The notes beneath the pieces were generated by a model, which was given only the letters and a program-made list of their open reading frames with translations, did not search any database and had not been told where the DNA came from. From a virus (taxonomy: Duplodnaviria > Caudoviricetes): a stretch of 28,197 nt of DNA. The DNA lies in the IMG/VR virus record IMGVR_UViG_3300048880_000066, positions 1 to 28,197 of that record, one strand, 5' to 3'. Positions 2,716-27,718 of this stretch are shown here, piece by piece. Made by a program: the position numbers and the translations under genes. Every line of letters starts with the position of its first letter. Positions within the stretch are counted from its first letter, which is position 1.

Positions 2716-3008
2716 TGGATACGACTCCGCTATATTGCGGAGTCAATGGCTGTAATACCCACGACTATCAGGTCGCTCCGGCTTTCTGCGATTACCAATG
2801 GCAACTGCGACAGGCAGACTTGGCCCGCAGAGAGTCGGATCGATCGGTGGAGCGCACAATTAAGGACGTCTCTCTGGTTCTCAGAGAGACGCTCCTCGAT
2901 GTTCTCGACACTATCGAGACGGTAAAAGAGGAGAAGCCCACCTATCGCGCCCCTAGCCAGCCAAACGGCTCCCCAAAACGAAACAAGAGAGGAGGAATTT
3001 CATTATGA
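2715..3008 (+). CDS. Hypothetical protein
   Basis: GTG start overlaps the previous TAG and its stop overlaps the next ATG. N-terminal C-x4-C-x2-H. Confidence 0.7.
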   Translation: MDTTPLYCGVNGCNTHDYQVAPAFCDYQWQLRQADLARRESDRSVERTIKDVSLVLRETLLDVLDTIETVKEEKPTYRAPSQPNGSPKRNKRGGISL

Positions 3009-4267
3009 CGTATCAGTATCAGAGCGACGCACAACCCCAACCTCCAGAAATGGAAGTTGATGGCGAAGTTTATACGCTCACTTGGCACGACCGAAATATC
3101 AAAATGACAATCGACAGATTCCATACTCGATCAGAAGAAACGAAAGCCGAAATCAAAGTCGAATTCGCCGACAGGGAAGAGAGCGAAGCAATGATCACGC
3201 GCGGACGTGCAGGTCTACTTTCAACATTCAAAAACCTGATCGACGATTGTGTCGACTTTGGCGGGGATTGGATCGAGAAAGACGACTGGAAAATTATGTT
3301 CAAACAAATGTCGATTACAGTTCTCGATCGGTTCCGCATGGGAGAACCCGTGCTGAATCTCGCGACCCTTGAGGACAAGGGCCAAAAACCGTTCATCGTG
3401 TCACCGTTTATTTTCGAAGGTTCGCCGACGATTATTTACGGACGCGGTGGGGTTGGTAAATCCTTGTTCTGTCTTTATTTGGCAATGCTGATGCAGACCG
3501 GAAACAGCGAAAATCGCCTCAATGCGACGGGAGGAAACGTCCTGTATCTCGATTGGGAGGCAGACCCCGACGAGTCGAAACATCGGGCAGACCTCATCGC
3601 CCACGGTATGAACATATCACCGGACGTGAACATTCATTATCGATTCTGTGCCGAACCGTTTACCAGCGAAATCGACGTGATACGGAGACTTGTCAGCAAA
3701 CTCGACATCCAGCTTGTCGTAATTGATTCCATAATTCCGTCATGTGGCGGGAATGCAATTGATCCAGAGGTGACCTCGAAATACTCCCGCGCGATTCGAT
3801 CTCTGAAAACTTCAAAGGGACAGGTTGCAACGCTCTTGATTGGTCACACGACCAAGCAAGAGGACAAGTCCGGAAGTCCGTTCGGGTCTGTCGTCTGGAG
3901 AAACTTCGCGAGAACCGTTTGGGAATTTCGCGCCCCACAACAGGCGAATTCTGATGTTGTCGACATTGCGTTGATACATCAAAAAATAAATCTCGGAAAA
4001 ACCCTTGCTCCTGTCGGGGTTCAAATCTATTGGGGTGAAGGTGCAGTCAAGTTCAAAGCTATGGACGCAAGACGACATCCGTTGTTCCGTGCGGACATGC
4101 CTCTGGGAGAGCGAATACACGTTCTTTTAGAGGATAACGGTACGATGACACTTGAACGCATCGTGTCGACCCTGAGGGGCGTCGAGGAGAGCGATATCCT
4201 TGATGTTCTAGAAGGAGACAATCGCTTCGAAAGTGTCGGAACTGGCTGGCAGTTAGTTTCGATCTAG
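3005..4267 (+). CDS. RecA-fold ATPase, AAA_25/RepA-type replicative helicase
   Basis: Walker A GRGGVGKS, VLYLDWE, Walker B LVVIDSI, LLIGHTTK, PFGS. C-terminal winged-helix-like segment; RBS GGAGGA. Confidence 0.85.
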   Translation: MTYQYQSDAQPQPPEMEVDGEVYTLTWHDRNIKMTIDRFHTRSEETKAEIKVEFADREESEAMITRGRAGLLSTFKNLIDDCVDFGGDWIEKDDWKIMFKQMSITVLDRFRMGEPVLNLATLEDKGQKPFIVSPFIFEGSPTIIYGRGGVGKSLFCLYLAMLMQTGNSENRLNATGGNVLYLDWEADPDESKHRADLIAHGMNISPDVNIHYRFCAEPFTSEIDVIRRLVSKLDIQLVVIDSIIPSCGGNAIDPEVTSKYSRAIRSLKTSKGQVATLLIGHTTKQEDKSGSPFGSVVWRNFARTVWEFRAPQQANSDVVDIALIHQKINLGKTLAPVGVQIYWGEGAVKFKAMDARRHPLFRADMPLGERIHVLLEDNGTMTLERIVSTLRGVEESDILDVLEGDNRFESVGTGWQLVSI

Positions 4268-16469: not shown

Positions 16470-16886
16470 CTAAACAGTAGTCCAAGTCGGAACAGTTCCG
16501 TCGGCTAATTGCAACGTTACGCTCCACGTTAGGGATCGATCATCGCCGAGAGAAATATCATAATTTTCGATTATGTATTCTCCCGCCATTTTTGGGTTGG
16601 TGGCAGTATTTCCACCGATCGCAATTGTGACCGTTCGCGCTGTCGTCCGAGTTTTGAAAACATCGTGCGACTTGTCGGTCGCGGCGTTGAAGTATCCTTC
16701 AAGTCCGATCGAGCCGTCCTGAAGTCCTCCGATCCTTTCCGGCGCACTCTTGTCGAGTCCTGTCACCTCCAATATGTTTGTCGGAAGGTTTATGGAAATT
16801 GAAGATATGTCGTTCGATATATCCTGCCAATTCCCTGCTGAGTTATCCACCGCAACATACGTTCCGGTTCCTGCTATTTTTGCCAT
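16470..16886 (-). CDS. Major tail (tube) protein
   Basis: LEVTGLD...RIGGLQDGSIGLEGYF...IIENYDISLG...WSVTLQ tail-tube pattern; RBS AAGGAGG. Confidence 0.8.
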   Translation of the reverse strand: MAKIAGTGTYVAVDNSAGNWQDISNDISSISINLPTNILEVTGLDKSAPERIGGLQDGSIGLEGYFNAATDKSHDVFKTRTTARTVTIAIGGNTATNPKMAGEYIIENYDISLGDDRSLTWSVTLQLADGTVPTWTTV

Positions 16887-16902
16887 TTTTAGACCTCCTT
16901 AA

Positions 16903-17622
16903 TTAGTCTCTGGCGAAATCAACTGCAAACACTAAATTCGTAAACGTGTTCGTGCTTCGACATCTTAGATATCGATTTACCGTTCCCGTAACGGCGACAT
17001 ACTCGCTGTTCGGGGACGTTGTTACAGCCGTAAAACTTATGAGATCAGTCCATGCCGATCCGTTTGTGGAATGCTGAATTTTTACGTCAGCAGTTCCAGA
17101 CGAAAGCGAGAACACTTGAAGAACAGCACTTCCGCCGCTTGATGACGACGCTCCGCTGTCTACCGTTCCTCCAGATGTTGTGCTTGCGTGGGTGTCTTGA
17201 TGAGACGTTAACATCACCCCGAACTGTGGAGTATATGTGTTGGATTCAAAACTCGCAGAGGCGGAGACGGCGGCATCGACGCCGGTATCGACATCGTAAT
17301 TCGCGATCTTTGCGACCATGTGAATCGACGGGTCGCCTTCAGCAGAACCCATCGGAACGAGTACGTTCTGATCCGTTGTCGGTACTTTGCCGGAATTAGC
17401 GGTGAACAGCGCATGGGATCGCCCAGCCGCCGCGTCAAACCAAACGCTCACTCCCATCGTTCCCGATCCTAATCCGGTGATACGTTTGTTCGCCGTGACG
17501 TCCAACGTTGTGACATCGAGCATCGTGCTGGAGTAACCGATTCCGTCGAGACTGTTTGCGTCTCCCGACAGGTCGTCTCCCTGTACATATAACCGAATAT
17601 TATTTCCGTTTACTTTTGCCAT
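16903..17622 (-). CDS. Second tail-tube-like protein with extra C-terminal domain
   Basis: N-terminal ~130 aa align with 16470-16886; C-terminal VKIQHSTNGSAWTDL...RYLR beta domain. Confidence 0.7.
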   Translation of the reverse strand: MAKVNGNNIRLYVQGDDLSGDANSLDGIGYSSTMLDVTTLDVTANKRITGLGSGTMGVSVWFDAAAGRSHALFTANSGKVPTTDQNVLVPMGSAEGDPSIHMVAKIANYDVDTGVDAAVSASASFESNTYTPQFGVMLTSHQDTHASTTSGGTVDSGASSSSGGSAVLQVFSLSSGTADVKIQHSTNGSAWTDLISFTAVTTSPNSEYVAVTGTVNRYLRCRSTNTFTNLVFAVDFARD

Positions 17623-19657: not shown

Positions 19658-20506
19658 TTAACTAGCGGCACACTTCAAAATTTTGAACGCATCGGTTAAA
19701 CCGACTTGTCCGTCGCCTCTTCGAGTTCCGAAGAAACCGATTTGATCCGTTTCCATGTAGAGCGAGTCGTTGCGACGTATCGAAAAACCAATCCTGTCAA
19801 AAATGTAGTAGTTTCGGAAGTCCCCAAACACAGCGATTTCGTTGTTCGCTTGCAAGCTTGAGTTAAGACCGTTGCCACTAATATCGTTGTTTATGACTGG
19901 TCGACCAAGCAAAAACGACGCCGGAGGTGTATTCAAGTCGTTGACTGAATGCACTCCTGCCGATGTTGCGTTGATGTTGTTGATCTCTTTCGAGATTAAC
20001 GATTGCATTACCCAAGTCGCATTAGCTCTGTGCTGTGCTTCTAAGGTATAGAAAATACCGAATATGTCAGCGGCAGTTATTGCCGTCGTCGCCCCCATAA
20101 CATAATCGGAAACGCCTGTTCCCGCGGGCAGAATCCCTTGGTAGTTTGTGGTGTCGTTACCGTTTAGGATTCCGACATCCTCAAATCTTCCACTAGCCTC
20201 TGCAAATATTTGTCCCAGCAATGCTGGCAAGTTTACTGCGGAGTCGTCGAGTAATTCTCGGCTGGTTTTCACCAATCCGCCCGACTTCTCTATGCTGAAA
20301 TTTACCTGTCCAACTACGGGCGTGGACTCCTGCGTTGTGTAGGCGGCTTCCTCTGCGATTGCCCCCCACGTTGCTGACGCTAACGTCGGCAAATATCCGT
20401 CCTTACTCGCAACACGAATAACCGTTGCCGCCGTTCTTAATGCTCCCCACGGCAGTCCGGTATCGTGAATCACAGAGTTTATAAACTCTTCTGGAACAAA
20501 GAATCC
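19658..20506 (-). CDS. HK97-fold major capsid protein, exon 2
   Basis: GFFVPEEF...EKSGGLVKTSRELLDDSAVNL...ILNGNDT...LLGRPV...VFGDF...RGDGQV...AF motifs; no well-placed RBS of its own. Confidence 0.93.
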   Translation of the reverse strand, partial: GFFVPEEFINSVIHDTGLPWGALRTAATVIRVASKDGYLPTLASATWGAIAEEAAYTTQESTPVVGQVNFSIEKSGGLVKTSRELLDDSAVNLPALLGQIFAEASGRFEDVGILNGNDTTNYQGILPAGTGVSDYVMGATTAITAADIFGIFYTLEAQHRANATWVMQSLISKEINNINATSAGVHSVNDLNTPPASFLLGRPVINNDISGNGLNSSLQANNEIAVFGDFRNYYIFDRIGFSIRRNDSLYMETDQIGFFGTRRGDGQVGLTDAFKILKCAAS

Positions 20507-20792
20507 CAATAATTTTTTTGTTACTACCTCAAAAAATTTGAGGCGGATCGATCATTTCTGTCGACCTCTCATGGTTTCCCATGAGTTCAGACTATCTCAT
20601 CATCTCCTTCGAGATGTTCGGCACTATTGATGTATTACGTTCTGCGCTCTCAGAACACCATCTAGTCGTTGAGCCTTCCCCGAAAGCGTTCGGGGCTTGG
20701 TTGCGGATTAGCTTATCTTGCGACTTAGCCTTCCCGACAGTTCACCGAATTTGCAACAGTTATCACTAACTGAGGGGGCAGATTACTTTTTT
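20507..20792 (-). ncRNA. Group I self-splicing intron (286 nt, no homing endonuclease, probably subgroup IA-like)
   Basis: 5' exon ends in U, intron ends in G. P/Q/R/S elements AACUGUCGGGAA, AAUCCGCAACC, CUCAACGACUA, GAGAUAGUCU. P3 UUCGGU/GCCGAA, P7 GACUA/UAGUC, P1 and P10 pairings. Removal restores EG|GFFVPEEF in frame. Confidence 0.93.
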
Positions 20793-21272
20793 ACCCTCTG
20801 CGTCCGTATCTTCTTGCATTGCCTTCAGAACATCTGTACTAGCTGTCTTGTAGAAAACATCTGTCGAAGGAGCGGTCATCCATTGGATGAAAGCATCCTT
20901 CTGGAAATTGGCTTCATCTTTTAAGTTGTCTCCCATGACATCCTGCACCCAGAGCGGCTGTGCCATTGCTGGCATTCCCTTTACCCAAGTCGCGGGCTTA
21001 TAGTCCGCCTTGGTCTTTGCTCCGGTGTCGTTTGCCTTGTACAGTTTCACGTCTTCGGATGCAACTGGGACTCTCTGAACGCCTTCGTCGCCCCACGTAT
21101 CGGTCATTTCTTTGACCTTCGAGGCGGTTGCGTCAAGAGAATCTGCCGTCGCGAATTTTTCTTTTGCTTCTGTCACCAGCTTCTCAGCCTGTACCGCTTC
21201 ACCAGAAGTGATGGCGGCTTCAGCCTGAGTTACCAGAGACTTAGCATCGTCGCGCAAATCTTTCGATTGCAT
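20793..21272 (-). CDS. Major capsid protein, exon 1 (scaffold/delta domain plus start of the capsid fold)
   Basis: Follows the protease (TAATG overlap, RBS AGGAG); helical N-terminus; ends KAMQEDTDAEG. Spliced product is 442 aa. Confidence 0.9.
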
Positions 21273-21958
21273 TACAAATCTCCTATTTCTTTTTTGATTT
21301 CTTCGATCTCTCTCAGTTGTATAGCTTTCCTCAATTCCTTGACCGTTTCGATCAACTCGTCGGGGACATCTACTTCCGTGCCAGAGGCATCCGACTCATC
21401 GTCGGACGTGTCTGGGACGGGTTCTGATTCTATAGTTGGTGTCACGTCATCGTCGGACTTTGCCGATATCGTTGCCGTGCTGGGTGACGCTCCCCGCACA
21501 ACTAGGCTGGTTTCTACCCAATCAAGATTATTGATTACCCGAACATGCTCTCCGCTCGTTGTTCGTTCCATGATTGCACTCTCTGGGGTCATATTGAACC
21601 CGACAGAGTATTGATTAAGATAGTCCCCTTTCACATTACTAAAAGCATCGCGTCCGAGTTCGGTTTCGAGATTCATCTGCATGACTGCTTTCAGCCTGTA
21701 TTCTTTCTCGCTAACCGGAACAACGCTCGCAGATAAAACTTTACCGACGACATTCGATTGGTCGTGCTGGGTGAGAACAGGAATCGGCAGATTGTTCTCG
21801 ATTGATTTGTCGAATGCGTCCGACGTGATGATGTCATTATCGGAATCGACGATGCCCATCGAGTTCACGTACGCTTCGACGATCCCCTGCGTCTCGTTCA
21901 GGACTTTGACCTCGGATAAGTTCCGGCTAATTTTCTCGATTCTAAATGTGTCGGTCAT
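21272..21958 (-). CDS. HK97-family prohead protease
   Basis: GIVEAYV...DSDNDII...VLTQHD...VVGK...YSVGF...ETSLVVRGA, with the catalytic His/Ser/Glu pattern. Confidence 0.92.
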   Translation of the reverse strand: MTDTFRIEKISRNLSEVKVLNETQGIVEAYVNSMGIVDSDNDIITSDAFDKSIENNLPIPVLTQHDQSNVVGKVLSASVVPVSEKEYRLKAVMQMNLETELGRDAFSNVKGDYLNQYSVGFNMTPESAIMERTTSGEHVRVINNLDWVETSLVVRGASPSTATISAKSDDDVTPTIESEPVPDTSDDESDASGTEVDVPDELIETVKELRKAIQLREIEEIKKEIGDL

Positions 21959-24048
21959 ACCAGCACTCCTTCGGGTTTGTAATCTCGCGGCATTGGCAAC
22001 CAGTTAAGTCGCCCGTTTGGGTGATCCATTATGTTCTGAGCATCTATCAACGGATAAATCGTGTTGTGCCTCTCGGCACATGTGAATCCATACGGGTCTG
22101 CCGGATCGACATAATCGTCGCTCGGATCGCCGTCGGGATCATCTGCTCTGGCATATCCGAATCCTTGATCCTGATATATCCGTGTAGTTGTCAGATTTTG
22201 AGTTCTCATCGTTTCCGTTCGGGCGATTAGTCTGGCTCGAACATTTGTTGCCTCGGTAAATACAGAGCGAATTCCGACGAAGTTTTCGTCCGGAACGCCT
22301 CTCGCCAATTGCTCGATCGTGTATCCACGAGAGAGAGCAATATCGATCACGCGCTGTGTCGCTCTTAATGTTGTCGAATGTATCAATGTCGTACGCTCTG
22401 GAACGCCCGTTAACAGTCCTGTTACCAGCGGAGATGTCGCGTTATATGTAACGCTTCCGGCGACTCCGGCATCGTTCACCGTTGCGAATGTTGCTTCGAT
22501 TCCGTCTGAATACTGACGGAAGAGAATGCTTGATAATTGCTGGGCCGATTCCTCTGGAATTAACTCCGCATAATCTCGCGGCATCGCTTTGATAACTTCG
22601 ATTCCCTGTCCCCTTTCCATCATTCGACCAAGTATTCCGTCGACCCTGTTCTGAAGACTGCGGAAATATTTTTGATATTCCGGCGTCCATTTATCTGTCA
22701 GGGATTCGCGCTCGTCGATAAGTCTTTGGCTCATGCGCTTGGCTCGGTCTGCGACCGCTCCAATCGCTTGAATTCCTTTCAACTCTTCGAGCGGCTGTGC
22801 GGCAATGATAGGATTCATCGGTGCTAACGGAAGTTCACCGACAACGACCTCGGTTGTTGTCGTGGGAATGCGTCGAATATCTCCGTTGTTTACGGCTTCA
22901 ATCCCAACCATTTCCCGCGCTTCATTTAGTGACACGATACCGGAAACAAACAACTCGGACGCTCTGTTCGTGATGCTGTCATCCTCGTCGAGAGACGATC
23001 TGTAATCGCTCATATCGACAGCGAGTTCGCCGTCGTTTGGAAAGTCTGCTACTAACATGAAATTAAAGAACCGAACTATTCGTGTGATCAACGGGTCGAT
23101 TGTCTCTGAAAAGAAAGCGAACCGCGCTTCTCTATAGTTACTATAGGTCGACCTTTGAAGTCCCACATTCGCAGAGATAAGAATGGGAGGAACTCCCAGC
23201 ACGGCGCAGATGCGCGTCTCTGTAGTGTTCCGAACCTCGGTCATTGCCATGTCCTTCGGTGCGGATGCCATCTGCTCATAGGACGCATCCTCGTCGAGTA
23301 TCGCTACCGAATGCAGATTGTTCGTCCCTCCGAAAGATGAACGCCATCGATTGCGGATGATGTTCGCTTCCTCCTGAGAGGTTAATCGTTTCTTGAGTTT
23401 CAAAAGTCCCGACGGAACTCCGGCATTATTGAAATATGCCTTGTTGAAATCCGTGATCGACATGTCGAGGTTAACGATTTTCGAGATCACATGGAGAGGC
23501 GATAATCCAAAATTATCGTCCTCTGGATTTGGTAATTTCAGATGTCCCATATCTTCATATGCGATCTGGTATTCCTTGGAATCGACCTCGTAAACATAGT
23601 CGTTCCGTCCGTCCCCGCGTGGCGTAATGCTTACGCGATCAGGACGCAACAGATACAGATCGCGAACTCTGCCGACGCCGTCGCGTTGCTTGAGAACGTA
23701 AACGTTTCCCGCAATGTTCAGATAGGTCACCACTTTTTCGATGAACGTGTACCAATCCTGCAAGTCATTTGGGCGGGATAATAAACGGGCAAACTCTCCC
23801 GATTCATCCTCTATATAGCCACCGTCTGCCGTTGGCTTCTGTATTAAATAGCGAACCGACGCCGCCGCTGTGGACAGTTCTCGGATACACGCATAAACAA
23901 TAGCGTTCTTTCCGTATCCTTCACGGGCATAATTGTAGTAATTGTCTGGAGGGTCTTCGGTCTGTGCGTATCCTCCGACAAGAGGGACGGTCGCGTCGAC
24001 CTGTTTGAGTTCTTCCGTTCTATTAAAGAGATTCCAGAAACTCGGCAT
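21955..24048 (-). CDS. HK97-family portal protein fused to a MuF (SPP1 gp7-like) domain
   Basis: NAIVYACI, GNVYV, LRPDRV, GLSPL, YFNNAGVPSG, ICAVLGVPP, SLNEARE, then RARLIARTET...C...HPNGR. ATG 24048 with SD AAGAGGTG is preferred over GTG 24054. Confidence 0.92.
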   Translation of the reverse strand: MPSFWNLFNRTEELKQVDATVPLVGGYAQTEDPPDNYYNYAREGYGKNAIVYACIRELSTAAASVRYLIQKPTADGGYIEDESGEFARLLSRPNDLQDWYTFIEKVVTYLNIAGNVYVLKQRDGVGRVRDLYLLRPDRVSITPRGDGRNDYVYEVDSKEYQIAYEDMGHLKLPNPEDDNFGLSPLHVISKIVNLDMSITDFNKAYFNNAGVPSGLLKLKKRLTSQEEANIIRNRWRSSFGGTNNLHSVAILDEDASYEQMASAPKDMAMTEVRNTTETRICAVLGVPPILISANVGLQRSTYSNYREARFAFFSETIDPLITRIVRFFNFMLVADFPNDGELAVDMSDYRSSLDEDDSITNRASELFVSGIVSLNEAREMVGIEAVNNGDIRRIPTTTTEVVVGELPLAPMNPIIAAQPLEELKGIQAIGAVADRAKRMSQRLIDERESLTDKWTPEYQKYFRSLQNRVDGILGRMMERGQGIEVIKAMPRDYAELIPEESAQQLSSILFRQYSDGIEATFATVNDAGVAGSVTYNATSPLVTGLLTGVPERTTLIHSTTLRATQRVIDIALSRGYTIEQLARGVPDENFVGIRSVFTEATNVRARLIARTETMRTQNLTTTRIYQDQGFGYARADDPDGDPSDDYVDPADPYGFTCAERHNTIYPLIDAQNIMDHPNGRLNWLPMPRDYKPEGVLV

Positions 24049-24084
24049 ATCCACCTCTTACGGCTTACGGGAACATGCCAAAGT
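24040..24084 (-). promoter_or_regulatory. Hairpin sequestering the portal start codon
   Basis: UUUGGCAUGUUC pairs with GGAUAUGCCGAG (contains the AUG); the loop holds CCGUAAG twice and the SD. Confidence 0.5.
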
Positions 24085-24477: not shown

Positions 24478-24588
24478 TTATTGCCTCTTATTGTCCATAA
24501 TTTTCGTTCGTTGTTTCGGGTGATGGCACTTGCAATCACAGCCGAGACAATCACGATGCCCGCCATATAAACAGATCAGCTTCACCAT
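24478..24588 (-). CDS. 36-aa Cys/His microprotein
   Basis: Not in the ORF track. MVKLICLYGGHRDCLGCDCKCHHPKQRTKIMDNKRQ*; overlaps the TerL stop and shares its motif with the next gene. Confidence 0.55.
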   Translation of the reverse strand: MVKLICLYGGHRDCLGCDCKCHHPKQRTKIMDNKRQ

Positions 24589-25766
24589 ACGCCCATCCCT
24601 GCCGCGCTTGTTCTGCCCTGTACCGCAAGAGCCAGAGCCATTACACAGTCGTCATGCAGTCCGGACGGGGCAGAATACTTCACTCCAGTTCTGGTGTACT
24701 CGTAAGCAAAGGCGTCGAGTTCACCAACGATCGCGCCCTCTGGATACGTGATGCCCTGCGTCTGAATGGCGAGCGACAGCCCCTCCATTAGCTTCTGCTT
24801 AGATGTCGAGGAGAATGTGTACCCCTGAACGTTGCCCAGAGAGCGTTGGAGACGCTCGACAATCGGGTCGCCAACTCCCGTACTGTCGACGAGTGCGCCT
24901 GTATTGCTGATGATATTTCCGAGACGATAACAAGTTTCTTCCCACGGTGCTTGAAAGCGTTCGAAAGCTGACACGTTTCCCGATTCGTCCAGCCCGATTG
25001 CGACCGTCCAATCCACACTCTTCGCGAGGTCGACACCAAAAACGACCGTCTCTTCGGTCGACATTGCTCCGATACATTGCTGGATTGCCCGCTGTCCGAA
25101 CGGGTTTCCGCCGTCCTCTGACGGTTCTGCGAGATACAGTTCCTTGAACACGTTCTCTGGAAGCATTCCCTTCGCCTGTTCTATCTCGTCAGCAACGACG
25201 ATGCCAGCTTCGACAGCGTCATACGCTGTCAGCTTGGCATAGTGCCAGTCGGGTTCTCCCATCTCCGCTCGTCGTGCGAGAACATATGCCCAATTCTTTC
25301 GCCCTTTAACGTTCCCGATAATGCGAATCTGTCCCCGTGTCGCTGTCATGGTTGAACGAATCGCATGCCATGCCTCCTCTCGCAGACGGGTTGCCTCGTC
25401 TATTACGACAGCAAAAACATCTTCTCCGTATAGGTTGTCCGGCTTCTCTCCAGATTTAAACGCAACGGTCGTGCCGTTAATGAGTCGGATCGTTAGTTCC
25501 GACTCGTTTGCTGTGTAGAGTGTTTGGCTGAGTCCGCGACGCATTCTCCGAAACGCGATTCTCGCTTGCGGATATACCGGAGCGACCCACCAAAACGTCT
25601 GCCCTTCCCGCCCTCGAAACGCCTGTTCTATGATCCATGAAAGACAGGCAACGGTCTTGCCGCTCTTCGTTGCCCCTTCGATTATTGCGTATCTTTTAGG
25701 GCTGAAGATCGCGGCCTGTTGCTTCGAGTATAGTGGGGGTCGTTTGTATTTGATTTGTGTCGTCAT
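24582..25766 (-). CDS. terL: Terminase large subunit
   Basis: Walker A GATKSGKT, WWVAPVYPQA, Walker B VVIDEA, nuclease GVDLAK..DWT and HDDCVMALALA. Confidence 0.95.
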   Translation of the reverse strand: MTTQIKYKRPPLYSKQQAAIFSPKRYAIIEGATKSGKTVACLSWIIEQAFRGREGQTFWWVAPVYPQARIAFRRMRRGLSQTLYTANESELTIRLINGTTVAFKSGEKPDNLYGEDVFAVVIDEATRLREEAWHAIRSTMTATRGQIRIIGNVKGRKNWAYVLARRAEMGEPDWHYAKLTAYDAVEAGIVVADEIEQAKGMLPENVFKELYLAEPSEDGGNPFGQRAIQQCIGAMSTEETVVFGVDLAKSVDWTVAIGLDESGNVSAFERFQAPWEETCYRLGNIISNTGALVDSTGVGDPIVERLQRSLGNVQGYTFSSTSKQKLMEGLSLAIQTQGITYPEGAIVGELDAFAYEYTRTGVKYSAPSGLHDDCVMALALAVQGRTSAAGMGVW

Positions 25767-26605: not shown

Positions 26606-27718
26606 TTAGATAATAGCGAGGGTTTTTGCGCCCCTGTAATCTATCGCCCCAACATATTTGAATCCGGCTGTTACGCGCCCCGATGCTGTAGTCGCTCCCA
26701 TTTGAACATCGCTCGCCGACTTCCCTGTCGGTGACACCCTGCGCGGCTTTCCCGTCATGCGCCAATTCGTCGACTTGGCTCGCGTCCATATCATCGCTGG
26801 ATGGGCCATTCGATCATACACGGGTTTCCCCGTCGCTCGCATCATCGAGGCGACCCTGTCAGCCATGACAGTCCCGATCCCCAGCCCTTGATAATCCGGC
26901 AGACAGACCGTCCTCGACAGTCTCCAGCCGGACGCGGTTGCGTGAGGGAACGACAGCACCCCGACGAATGCGACGGGAGTGTCGTTCATAAACGCCACGA
27001 AACACGTCGTCGACTGGTTTATGCTCTGGCTTAGATAGTGAAATCGACTGAAGGTACTCCATGCGCTTTTATTGACTCGGCGAATGGTGAGTGAAACTTC
27101 CGGTCGTCGCCGAACCGACCTCCATGTGAACTGGTTATCGGCTGGCTCATACAGCCAGTCGGGTTGCAACCAATCGACGATATCGTAATGACAGGACACG
27201 GCGACGAACTGTCCTCCGCGTCTCCGTACGGCTTTCGCCATCGAGTGGCTTCCGATCTGAGCGACTGTCCGGTCGACGACGCTGGTGAACTCATCAAGTA
27301 CAACCAGCCCGTCGGAGACAATGGCTCGCGCAAGATTGGCGCGGAACTGCTCTCCGGTAGACAGCACATGGAACGGACGCAACCAGTTCGGCGGACTGCC
27401 GAACCCAACGCTCGACAGAGCATAGGTGATGTCTTTTATCGACATGATGTCAGGAAAAGAATCGACGATACTTTCGCCCTTCTTCCAATCGAACTCCTTG
27501 ATGGCGTCGCCAAAAACCTCCGACGCGATGGTGGTTTTCCCAGAGCCAGACGCGCCGACGATGAGTCCAACGTTCCACTCCTGCTCGTCGAGCGGCATTG
27601 ATACCGTCCACCCCTCTCGGCTGACTTCGTCGGCCTTGAGGTCGAAGATGCCCTCGACCTGTTGGACGCGCGGCGTCCGTTTAATGTCGGCAGTTCTTAG
27701 GATATTAAACTCTGGCAT
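26606..27718 (-). CDS. ABC-type ATPase fused to a GNAT acetyltransferase (Mom-like candidate)
   Basis: Walker A GASGSGKT, signature LSTGEQFR, Walker B VVLDEF, H-loop SCH; C-terminal FHYL...RTVCLPDYQGLGIG acetyl-CoA-binding motif A. Confidence 0.85.
   Translation of the reverse strand: MPEFNILRTADIKRTPRVQQVEGIFDLKADEVSREGWTVSMPLDEQEWNVGLIVGASGSGKTTIASEVFGDAIKEFDWKKGESIVDSFPDIMSIKDITYALSSVGFGSPPNWLRPFHVLSTGEQFRANLARAIVSDGLVVLDEFTSVVDRTVAQIGSHSMAKAVRRRGGQFVAVSCHYDIVDWLQPDWLYEPADNQFTWRSVRRRPEVSLTIRRVNKSAWSTFSRFHYLSQSINQSTTCFVAFMNDTPVAFVGVLSFPHATASGWRLSRTVCLPDYQGLGIGTVMADRVASMMRATGKPVYDRMAHPAMIWTRAKSTNWRMTGKPRRVSPTGKSASDVQMGATTASGRVTAGFKYVGAIDYRGAKTLAII

Follow-up and report, generated by a model that had tools for sequence, protein, structure and literature searches.

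Introduction

How is a major capsid gene expressed when 286 nt without an open reading frame (ORF) interrupt it at the start of the HK97 fold, and by which route do such inserts spread among related phages? This question is raised by a tailed phage (Caudoviricetes; IMG/VR record IMGVR_UViG_3300048880_000066) of which 28,197 nucleotides, here called the window, were analyzed; the window is a linear virus record and is 89% complete. The initial annotation, made from the letters alone, had described the insert as a compact group I intron. Homing, collaborative homing and microhomology repair have been described as means by which group I introns move, and direct proof of mobility by reverse splicing is lacking according to the accessible sections of three papers (PMC3984707, PMC2988022, PMC3073962). 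How group I introns without an ORF reach new sites is named as an open question in the available part of one of them (PMC3984707).

Results

The head module of the window lies on the minus strand in the order terminase, portal, protease and capsid. Matches to PF04860, PF03237, phrog_12 and phrog_2 cover the portal (21955-24054) and the terminase large subunit (24582-25766), and a prohead protease (PF04586; 21272..21958) is encoded directly upstream of the capsid gene. The capsid gene itself is called as two ORFs of 168 aa (20766-21272) and 283 aa (19658-20509). Excision of 20792-20507 (286 nt) yields a single frame of 442 aa, with the break between codons 160 and 161. There are ten in-frame U|...G junctions near both ends, and only 20792/20507 gives the motif of the uninterrupted homologues without gain or loss of a residue. 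In an alignment with 27 such homologues both exons abut with neither gap nor overlap. Exon 1 (20793..21272, minus strand) comprises 160 codons, the last base of which is the U of the 5' splice site, and is collinear with residues 1-160 of uninterrupted homologues (88% to P0025). Exon 2 (19658..20506, minus strand; 282 codons plus stop) encodes the HK97-fold core and matches PF05065 from profile position 2 (E 7.7e-40) as well as phrog_10, the major head protein. The coordinates, the junction, the 442-aa product and the terminal G given in the initial annotation are thereby confirmed, and the alignment with intron-less homologues that it had proposed as a check shows exons collinear with uninterrupted capsid genes.

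The PF05065 match, the portal-protease-capsid order and solved homologues identify the product as an HK97-type capsid protein; a profile built from the homologue alignment matches four solved capsid sequences (best E 1.7e-27), and the junction motif lies within the displayed alignments. Exon 1 alone gave no capsid match in Pfam, and a single-sequence structure model is helical over residues 1-58 and unreliable for the rest (pLDDT 49.6). Exon 1 likely encodes a scaffold (delta) domain of the HK97 type, together with the N-terminal residues of the mature protein. The intron would then lie about ten codons past the maturation cut, if this cut is placed by likeness to phage LittleE (PMC3706429). 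Among annotated phage capsids the best matches are at most 35% identical, and searches of GTDB genomes with a single query and with an alignment query found no relative. A scan for promoters and terminators gave no signal above shuffled sequences. Some features of the surrounding genes were seen in passing. The portal gene encodes 699 aa, of which only residues 52-384 form the portal domain, and the best matches over its full length carry the joint annotation of portal and minor head protein. Two adjacent ORFs at 16470-17622 (minus strand) match the same two major tail protein families. A 370-aa protein encoded upstream of the terminase genes (26606-27718, minus strand) has ABC-ATPase-like and GNAT acetyltransferase matches (phrog_11143) and adjoins a ParB-like/methyltransferase ORF. 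In the related locus L033 a second match to capsid residues 160-223 lies at 2962-3153, inside a long protease gene that immediately precedes an intact capsid gene.

The insert (20507..20792, minus strand) is recognized by the group I intron model RF00028, which in cmscan matches 20809-20568 over the whole model with 87.9 bits against a gathering score of 50 (E 1.9e-21). This is the sole Rfam match within the window and the outcome of the covariance-model check that the initial annotation had asked for. The insert has stops in all six frames and its 62-aa antisense ORF is without a Pfam match, in agreement with the description as ORF-less. Every helix named before could be located, and P4, P5, P5a and P6 were found in addition; the coordinates of P7 needed a small correction, to 20669-20663 pairing with 20594-20589. 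The internal guide sequence (20776..20784, minus strand, like all elements listed here) is assigned from the sequence and from pairing and covariation with the exon across relatives. Its part 20779-20776 forms P1 with the last 4 nt of exon 1, with a U-G pair at the splice site, and 20784-20780 forms P10 with the first 5 nt of exon 2. The P2 hairpin follows at 20757..20772, with changes on both sides in 6/6 pairs. The 5' strand of P3 (20749-20744) and the P4-P5-P5a-P6-P6a domain occupy 20673..20749, placed by RF00028, helix location and covariation. Helix location and covariation likewise define the catalytic core at 20589..20669, which contains P7 with an invariant G-binding G-C pair, the P7.1/P7.1a insertion (20662-20629), the 3' strand of P3 (20622-20617) and P8 (20616-20601), as well as the 3' part at 20507..20585 with the hairpins P9, P9.1 and P9.2, a conserved UAACA linker and the terminal G at 20507. 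P9.2, identified only in the window, does not enter the pair count below. Thus, a score above the covariance-model cut-off, a U-G splice site with terminal G, a covarying core with its pseudoknot and the exact restoration of the gene together place the insert among the group I introns.

A 306-nt stretch folds better than 100 of 100 shuffled versions (z -3.86), and its minimum-energy fold omits P7 and the exact P1. P4 contains an extra bulged U, and the first pair of P6 (20701 with 20673) is non-standard. This pair is A-C in the five-member lineage of the window intron, G-U in 16 of 27 introns and U-U in 6, and the position looks wobble-shaped rather than damaged. Subgroup IA is defined by an extra hairpin domain between P7 and P3. 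P7.1 of the introns compared is paired in 100% of cells and has double changes in 3 of 4 pairs, and the window intron likely belongs to this subgroup, bearing in mind that phage introns fit subtypes poorly, as stated in the accessible text of PMC11878797 (for subgroup context see also the available parts of PMC12350094 and PMC6125680). As a separate observation, the loop of the P6 extension (20691-20688) is complementary over 4 nt to the P7.1a loop (20647-20644, minus strand). The two 4-mers are different yet complementary in two other intron groups, and the complementarity is only partly kept in L027, L134, L087 and the L098 group. We presume that the two loops may form a P11-type tertiary pair, and a literature search on this pair gave no result.

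Two protein searches of viral contigs yielded 91 loci on 90 contigs. The region of the junction is a hotspot: 85 contigs span it, 70 of them uninterrupted and 15 with an insert, and the inserts lie at four sites within 19 nt. These are site A after codon 155 (3 contigs), site B after codon 157 (4 contigs), site C of the window after codon 160 (6 contigs) and site D inside codon 162 (2 contigs). Three of 78 contigs have an intron at site E (near codon 411); further cases are L087, which the count missed, and L006, the contig of which ends inside such an intron. There are hence five capsid intron sites in total, all with ORF-less inserts, and their fractions are not population frequencies because many contigs are near-copies. 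A motif search added 76 further loci, 45 of them in the capsid gene of the window clade. The 31 distinct introns from viral contigs measure 257-331 nt and contain no ORF longer than 96 aa. Of 44 matches in a metagenome pattern scan that looked for alleles with an endonuclease, 12 were capsid loci, all with ORF-less hotspot inserts of 270-292 nt; the other 32 lacked a capsid match and were dropped as chance. Three capsid genes (L015, L087 and L193) hold two ORF-less group I introns each, one in the hotspot and one near the C-terminus. When 18 related loci were scanned with Rfam, 13 of them gave matches, 15 in number and with scores of 88-115 bits; four of the remaining five loci are gap-free and one is a cut contig. 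When junctions were scored without a splice-site rule, U|...G came out best for 16 of 19 gaps; for two of the others the U|...G register gives the same peptide, and for one it is second by 0.4.

The window's structure could be followed through these relatives. In 27 distinct introns of sites A-D, 97.3% of cells are paired, and both partners have changed in 30 of 53 pairs, a count reached by 0 of 500 shuffles, with slid controls at 23-40%. Both controls are inflated, since the structure was drawn from one of the sequences and the rows are related, and the double changes are still numerous. MAFFT placed P3 and part of P4 out of register in five rows; both were therefore dropped from the alignment count and counted by motif, which gave 35 of 36 pairs for P3 in 6 distinct strand combinations (2 of 2000 shuffles as high). 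A P1 of 4 bp with the U-G pair at the splice site is present in 26 of 27 hotspot introns and varies in step with the exon, and P10 measures 2-9 bp across them. From established group I chemistry, the window intron is very probably a functional self-splicing ribozyme. A guanosine bound in P7 would attack the U-G pair in P1, exon 1, once freed, would attack the position following the terminal G, which P10 brings into line, and would thereby be joined to exon 2. Self-excision from the late mRNA would allow a single 442-aa capsid precursor to be made from both exons.

That spliced RNA was not seen could also mean that the phage is defective and the insert a dead intron or an assembly artefact. A search for RNA runs listed three, and in contigs inspected from two seawater RNA runs (2/2) pieces of both exons were covered and neither the intron nor the junction. 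One RNA contig of run X1 crosses the hotspot uninterrupted. It comes from a different strain, with 8 differences in 53 bases, and could represent an intron-less allele, so it does not count as evidence of splicing. The odd first P6 pair and the extra P4 bulge might be taken as decay; both are common to five distinct introns, though, the same intron occurs in the independent contig L001 and, in one piece, in run X3, and the genes next to the split capsid gene are all open. We regard a dead intron or artefact as hardly credible. It is also very unlikely that splicing is optional, a reading in which the unspliced message would provide two products: a separate scaffold-like protein of exon 1 with 8 further residues, and a capsid core whose translation restarts at the intron's final UUG. 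The intron does sit at the likely boundary between scaffold and core, and an in-frame AUG, GUG or UUG ends 24 of the 31 distinct introns, several with a purine-rich run 5-6 nt upstream. Yet the best ribosome-site match of the window is 15 nt from the UUG, inside the P9.2 stem, and three of four site-E introns have the same ending, where a restart would give only about 30 residues; it is these useless site-E codons and the buried ribosome site that make a restart unlikely. Furthermore, a start codon is missing or out of frame at the end of 7 of the 31 introns, the ribozyme is under strong pairing constraint, and an arrangement of two genes with an unrelated spacer was not seen among the related loci compared.

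The relatives of the window intron do not sort by site. Its core (intron positions 20-250) is 98.7% identical to that of L001 (site C), 91-92% to L027 and L031 (site A) and L134 (site B), and 61-66% to the other 11 site-C introns. In the intron tree the introns of the window, L001, L027, L031 and L134 form a 100/100 clade over sites A, B and C, and monophyly by site is rejected for C (AU p 3.5e-11), A (4.2e-6) and B (9.4e-19). Introns L027 at site A and L134 at site B are 94.7% identical (287/303 columns) in capsid genes of 71% identity, they share the whole intron including a unique 3' tail, and their sites have the same 8-nt local context. These observations are the case for transposition, in which an excised intron RNA would reverse-splice into the abundant capsid mRNA at a nearby guide match and would become established in the DNA either through microhomology repair or through reverse transcription with recombination. 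In fungal rDNA this pattern has been interpreted as reverse splicing, at least in the accessible part of that report (PMC1299323). However, the tree test assumes no recombination, so the rejection of monophyly shows conflict and not transposition, and recombination between introns yields the same conflict. A search for a reverse transcriptase (RVT_1) gave a match in none of five records. Two hotspot introns never occur on the same contig, an observation of little weight for or against. We consider transposition unlikely. That the clade's ribozymes hop between neighbouring capsid positions with a few guide bases retuned, by reinsertion at the RNA level and with no endonuclease, is a proposal we hold to be a little less probable still. 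If true, the trio of L027, L134 and the window would be a case of reverse-splicing transposition caught in the act in phage mRNA, a pathway long proposed without direct proof.

Homing offers another route. An ancestral endonuclease might have been lost, or a free-standing one might act in trans (collaborative homing), and the ORF-less introns would be the residue. Collaborative homing is described in the accessible text of PMC3984707 and PMC2988022, the sites lie in a highly conserved motif, and the flank pattern given below resembles co-conversion. In other phages, introns with the same P7-P9 motif adjoin HNH, LAGLIDADG, GIY-YIG or EndoVII genes at 15 of 19 loci, which shows adjacency only. 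These figures come from 47 of 80 frames, from 19 of 31 non-clade loci. Their neighbours include other head proteins, tape measure, terminase and ribonucleotide reductase genes, and it follows that the wider family has endonucleases and favours virion genes, the copies of the window clade being without. The capsid intron of LittleE, one codon away, holds an endonuclease gene. Against this stands the uniform lack of an endonuclease frame: with 31 of 31 distinct introns and 12 of 12 metagenome inserts at the lengths given above, none encodes the endonuclease that marks mobile (homing) introns. The window ORFs gave no endonuclease family match (31 plus 16 scanned of 133 listed, the rest being mostly overlapping or antisense). 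Genome-wide searches of five records, with completeness of 14-91% and only some at 86-91%, found HNH, HNH_3, GIY-YIG and LAGLIDADG_3 in 0 of 5 each; nuclease families beyond these four profiles would be missed. Relatives have no separate gene between protease and capsid. A free-standing gene beside the capsid gene had been considered from long protease-capsid distances in relatives, and these distances turned out to be one open protease extension. Overall, past or trans homing appears improbable to us, to about the same degree as transposition. Two observations on the wider family stand apart from this question. A compact related intron splits the tape-measure genes of L114, L125 and L147, and several loci of large phages (L096, L106, L126, L142, L152, L154 and L166) contain two to four pieces of intron in a stretch of 3 kb, adjacent to endonucleases and head genes.

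We lean, if modestly, towards DNA recombination as the main route of spread, on the basis of sequence comparisons. During co-infection, recombination would carry the intron and a short flanking exon stretch between alleles, and the ribozyme body would be swapped between introns of neighbouring sites, with the site-specific ends staying in place. The window intron would accordingly be a site-C intron with a core from the lineage now at sites A and B. The nearest relative indeed changes from segment to segment: the window core is 89-97% like L027 and L134, and for the 5' leader and P9.2 the best, if weak, agreement (69-75%) is with site-C introns. These end segments may have converged, as they measure only 13-21 nt, reach no more than 69-75% identity and are held in part by pairing with the exon. 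Similar switches occur in L037 and L079. This segment mosaicism appears to favour recombination between introns over true transposition, and the likeness of the whole L027 and L134 introns fits whole-intron movement as well as a swap. In a 49-nt window around the hotspot, pairs of alleles with an intron at the same site differ by 0.5% against a background of 4.6% (12 pairs), intron-less pairs by 3.6% against 4.1% (14 pairs) and pairs with and without intron by 13.9% against 7.4% (15 pairs). This is a weak sign of introns travelling with short exon flanks, because the pairs are non-independent and 5-49% of other windows are as divergent. On the capsid tree (74 rows, a set enriched for introns and with L006 mislabelled intron-less) the intron-less state requires 18 changes, the shuffled mean being 22.6, and intron-bearing and intron-less alleles are often close sisters. 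The window intron is, as judged from these sequences, an allele of patchy occurrence and belongs to a set of related ORF-less introns at adjacent sites. Exon sliding was also considered and seems unlikely to us; the cross-site relatives have no exon remnant at the intron ends.

Discussion

We consider it fairly probable that a protein-free, self-splicing intron interrupts the capsid gene of this phage and spreads among related phages via DNA recombination. Neutral recombination leaves the first occupation of the five sites and the persistence of the introns unexplained; for the first occupation, transposition or past or trans homing may also account. Group I introns in capsid genes are already known and a single intron such as that of the window is ordinary. 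What the series adds, as far as the sequences tell, are ORF-less introns at five capsid sites, with near-identical ones a few bases apart in related phages: ribozymes 91-95% identical lie at spacings of 6, 9 and 15 nt in capsid genes that are only 61-71% identical, with guides matched to each site. Such a series is a compact natural experiment on the movement of introns that lack an endonuclease, and the short intron RNAs of the clade make reverse splicing, guide retargeting and core swapping directly testable. It also matters for annotation, since capsid genes of this kind come out of gene calling as 283-aa fragments (P0001-P0004 are examples).

We found no paper on the introns of the window clade; subscription journals and supplements were mostly outside the scope of this search, and census tables could list them. 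The rarity implied by the initial annotation is not supported, at least in view of the accessible text of two reports, which describe a spliced capsid intron in LittleE and an ORF-less tail intron in BAKA (PMC3706429) and capsid introns in crAss-like phages (PMC7886860). The closest intron-like DNA among annotated phage records is a 284-nt gap between two terL coding sequences of Streptococcus phage 2972. It matches the profile of the window clade at E 5.8e-17, lies in a terminase gene and is covered by BLASTN over only 14% of the query. We take this insert to be the published spliced intron of that phage.

The nearest case in terms of the host gene is LittleE, in which splicing was shown by RT-PCR and N-terminal sequencing, as reported in the available text of PMC3706429. 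As in the window, the capsid gene is of HK97 type and is interrupted by a group I-type intron close to where the mature protein begins; exon 2 of LittleE starts at PF05065 position 3 and that of the window at position 2, so the LittleE site is one codon downstream. In contrast to the 286-nt ORF-less intron studied here, the LittleE intron has 808 nt by its GenBank record (819 in PMC3706429) and contains an endonuclease gene. The two capsid proteins have no pairwise BLASTP match, and the LittleE intron matches the profile of the window clade weakly (E 2.8e-5). That both introns lie in one short motif points to the beginning of the HK97 fold as a recurrent hotspot. The introns of LittleE (L214) and the window also share the same short linker motif just before the terminal G, in unrelated capsid genes. 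The accessible part of the same paper cites a capsid intron in Tuc2009 and describes a 265-nt tail-gene intron in BAKA and Optimus that lacks an endonuclease and is spliced (RT-PCR for BAKA) (PMC3706429). This intron resembles that of the window in being ORF-less and in a virion gene, but it interrupts a tail gene and does not occupy a neighbouring site in the same gene. Since it shares 156 nt at 98% with the LittleE intron, related introns at different sites are already on record, as far as the available text goes (PMC3706429).

In crAss-like phages, group I introns are typical of core genes including the capsid gene, and one gene is present in five fragments, according to the accessible text (PMC7886860). 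These introns were found via endonuclease domains and belong to large genomes with many introns, whereas the window has one ORF-less intron in a genome of about 30 kb. Several similar introns can also share one gene, as in Twort, where one gene holds three (PMC3984707, PMC2988022, PMC3073962, in the parts at hand). The closest parallel for the pattern of sites comes from fungal rDNA, in which ORF-less group I introns are inferred, in the available text of the report, to have spread by reverse splicing between different sites that share few exon bases (PMC1299323). The difference is that those introns reside in eukaryotic rRNA, while those of the window clade lie in phage mRNA, at sites 4-19 nt apart and with signs of mosaicism.
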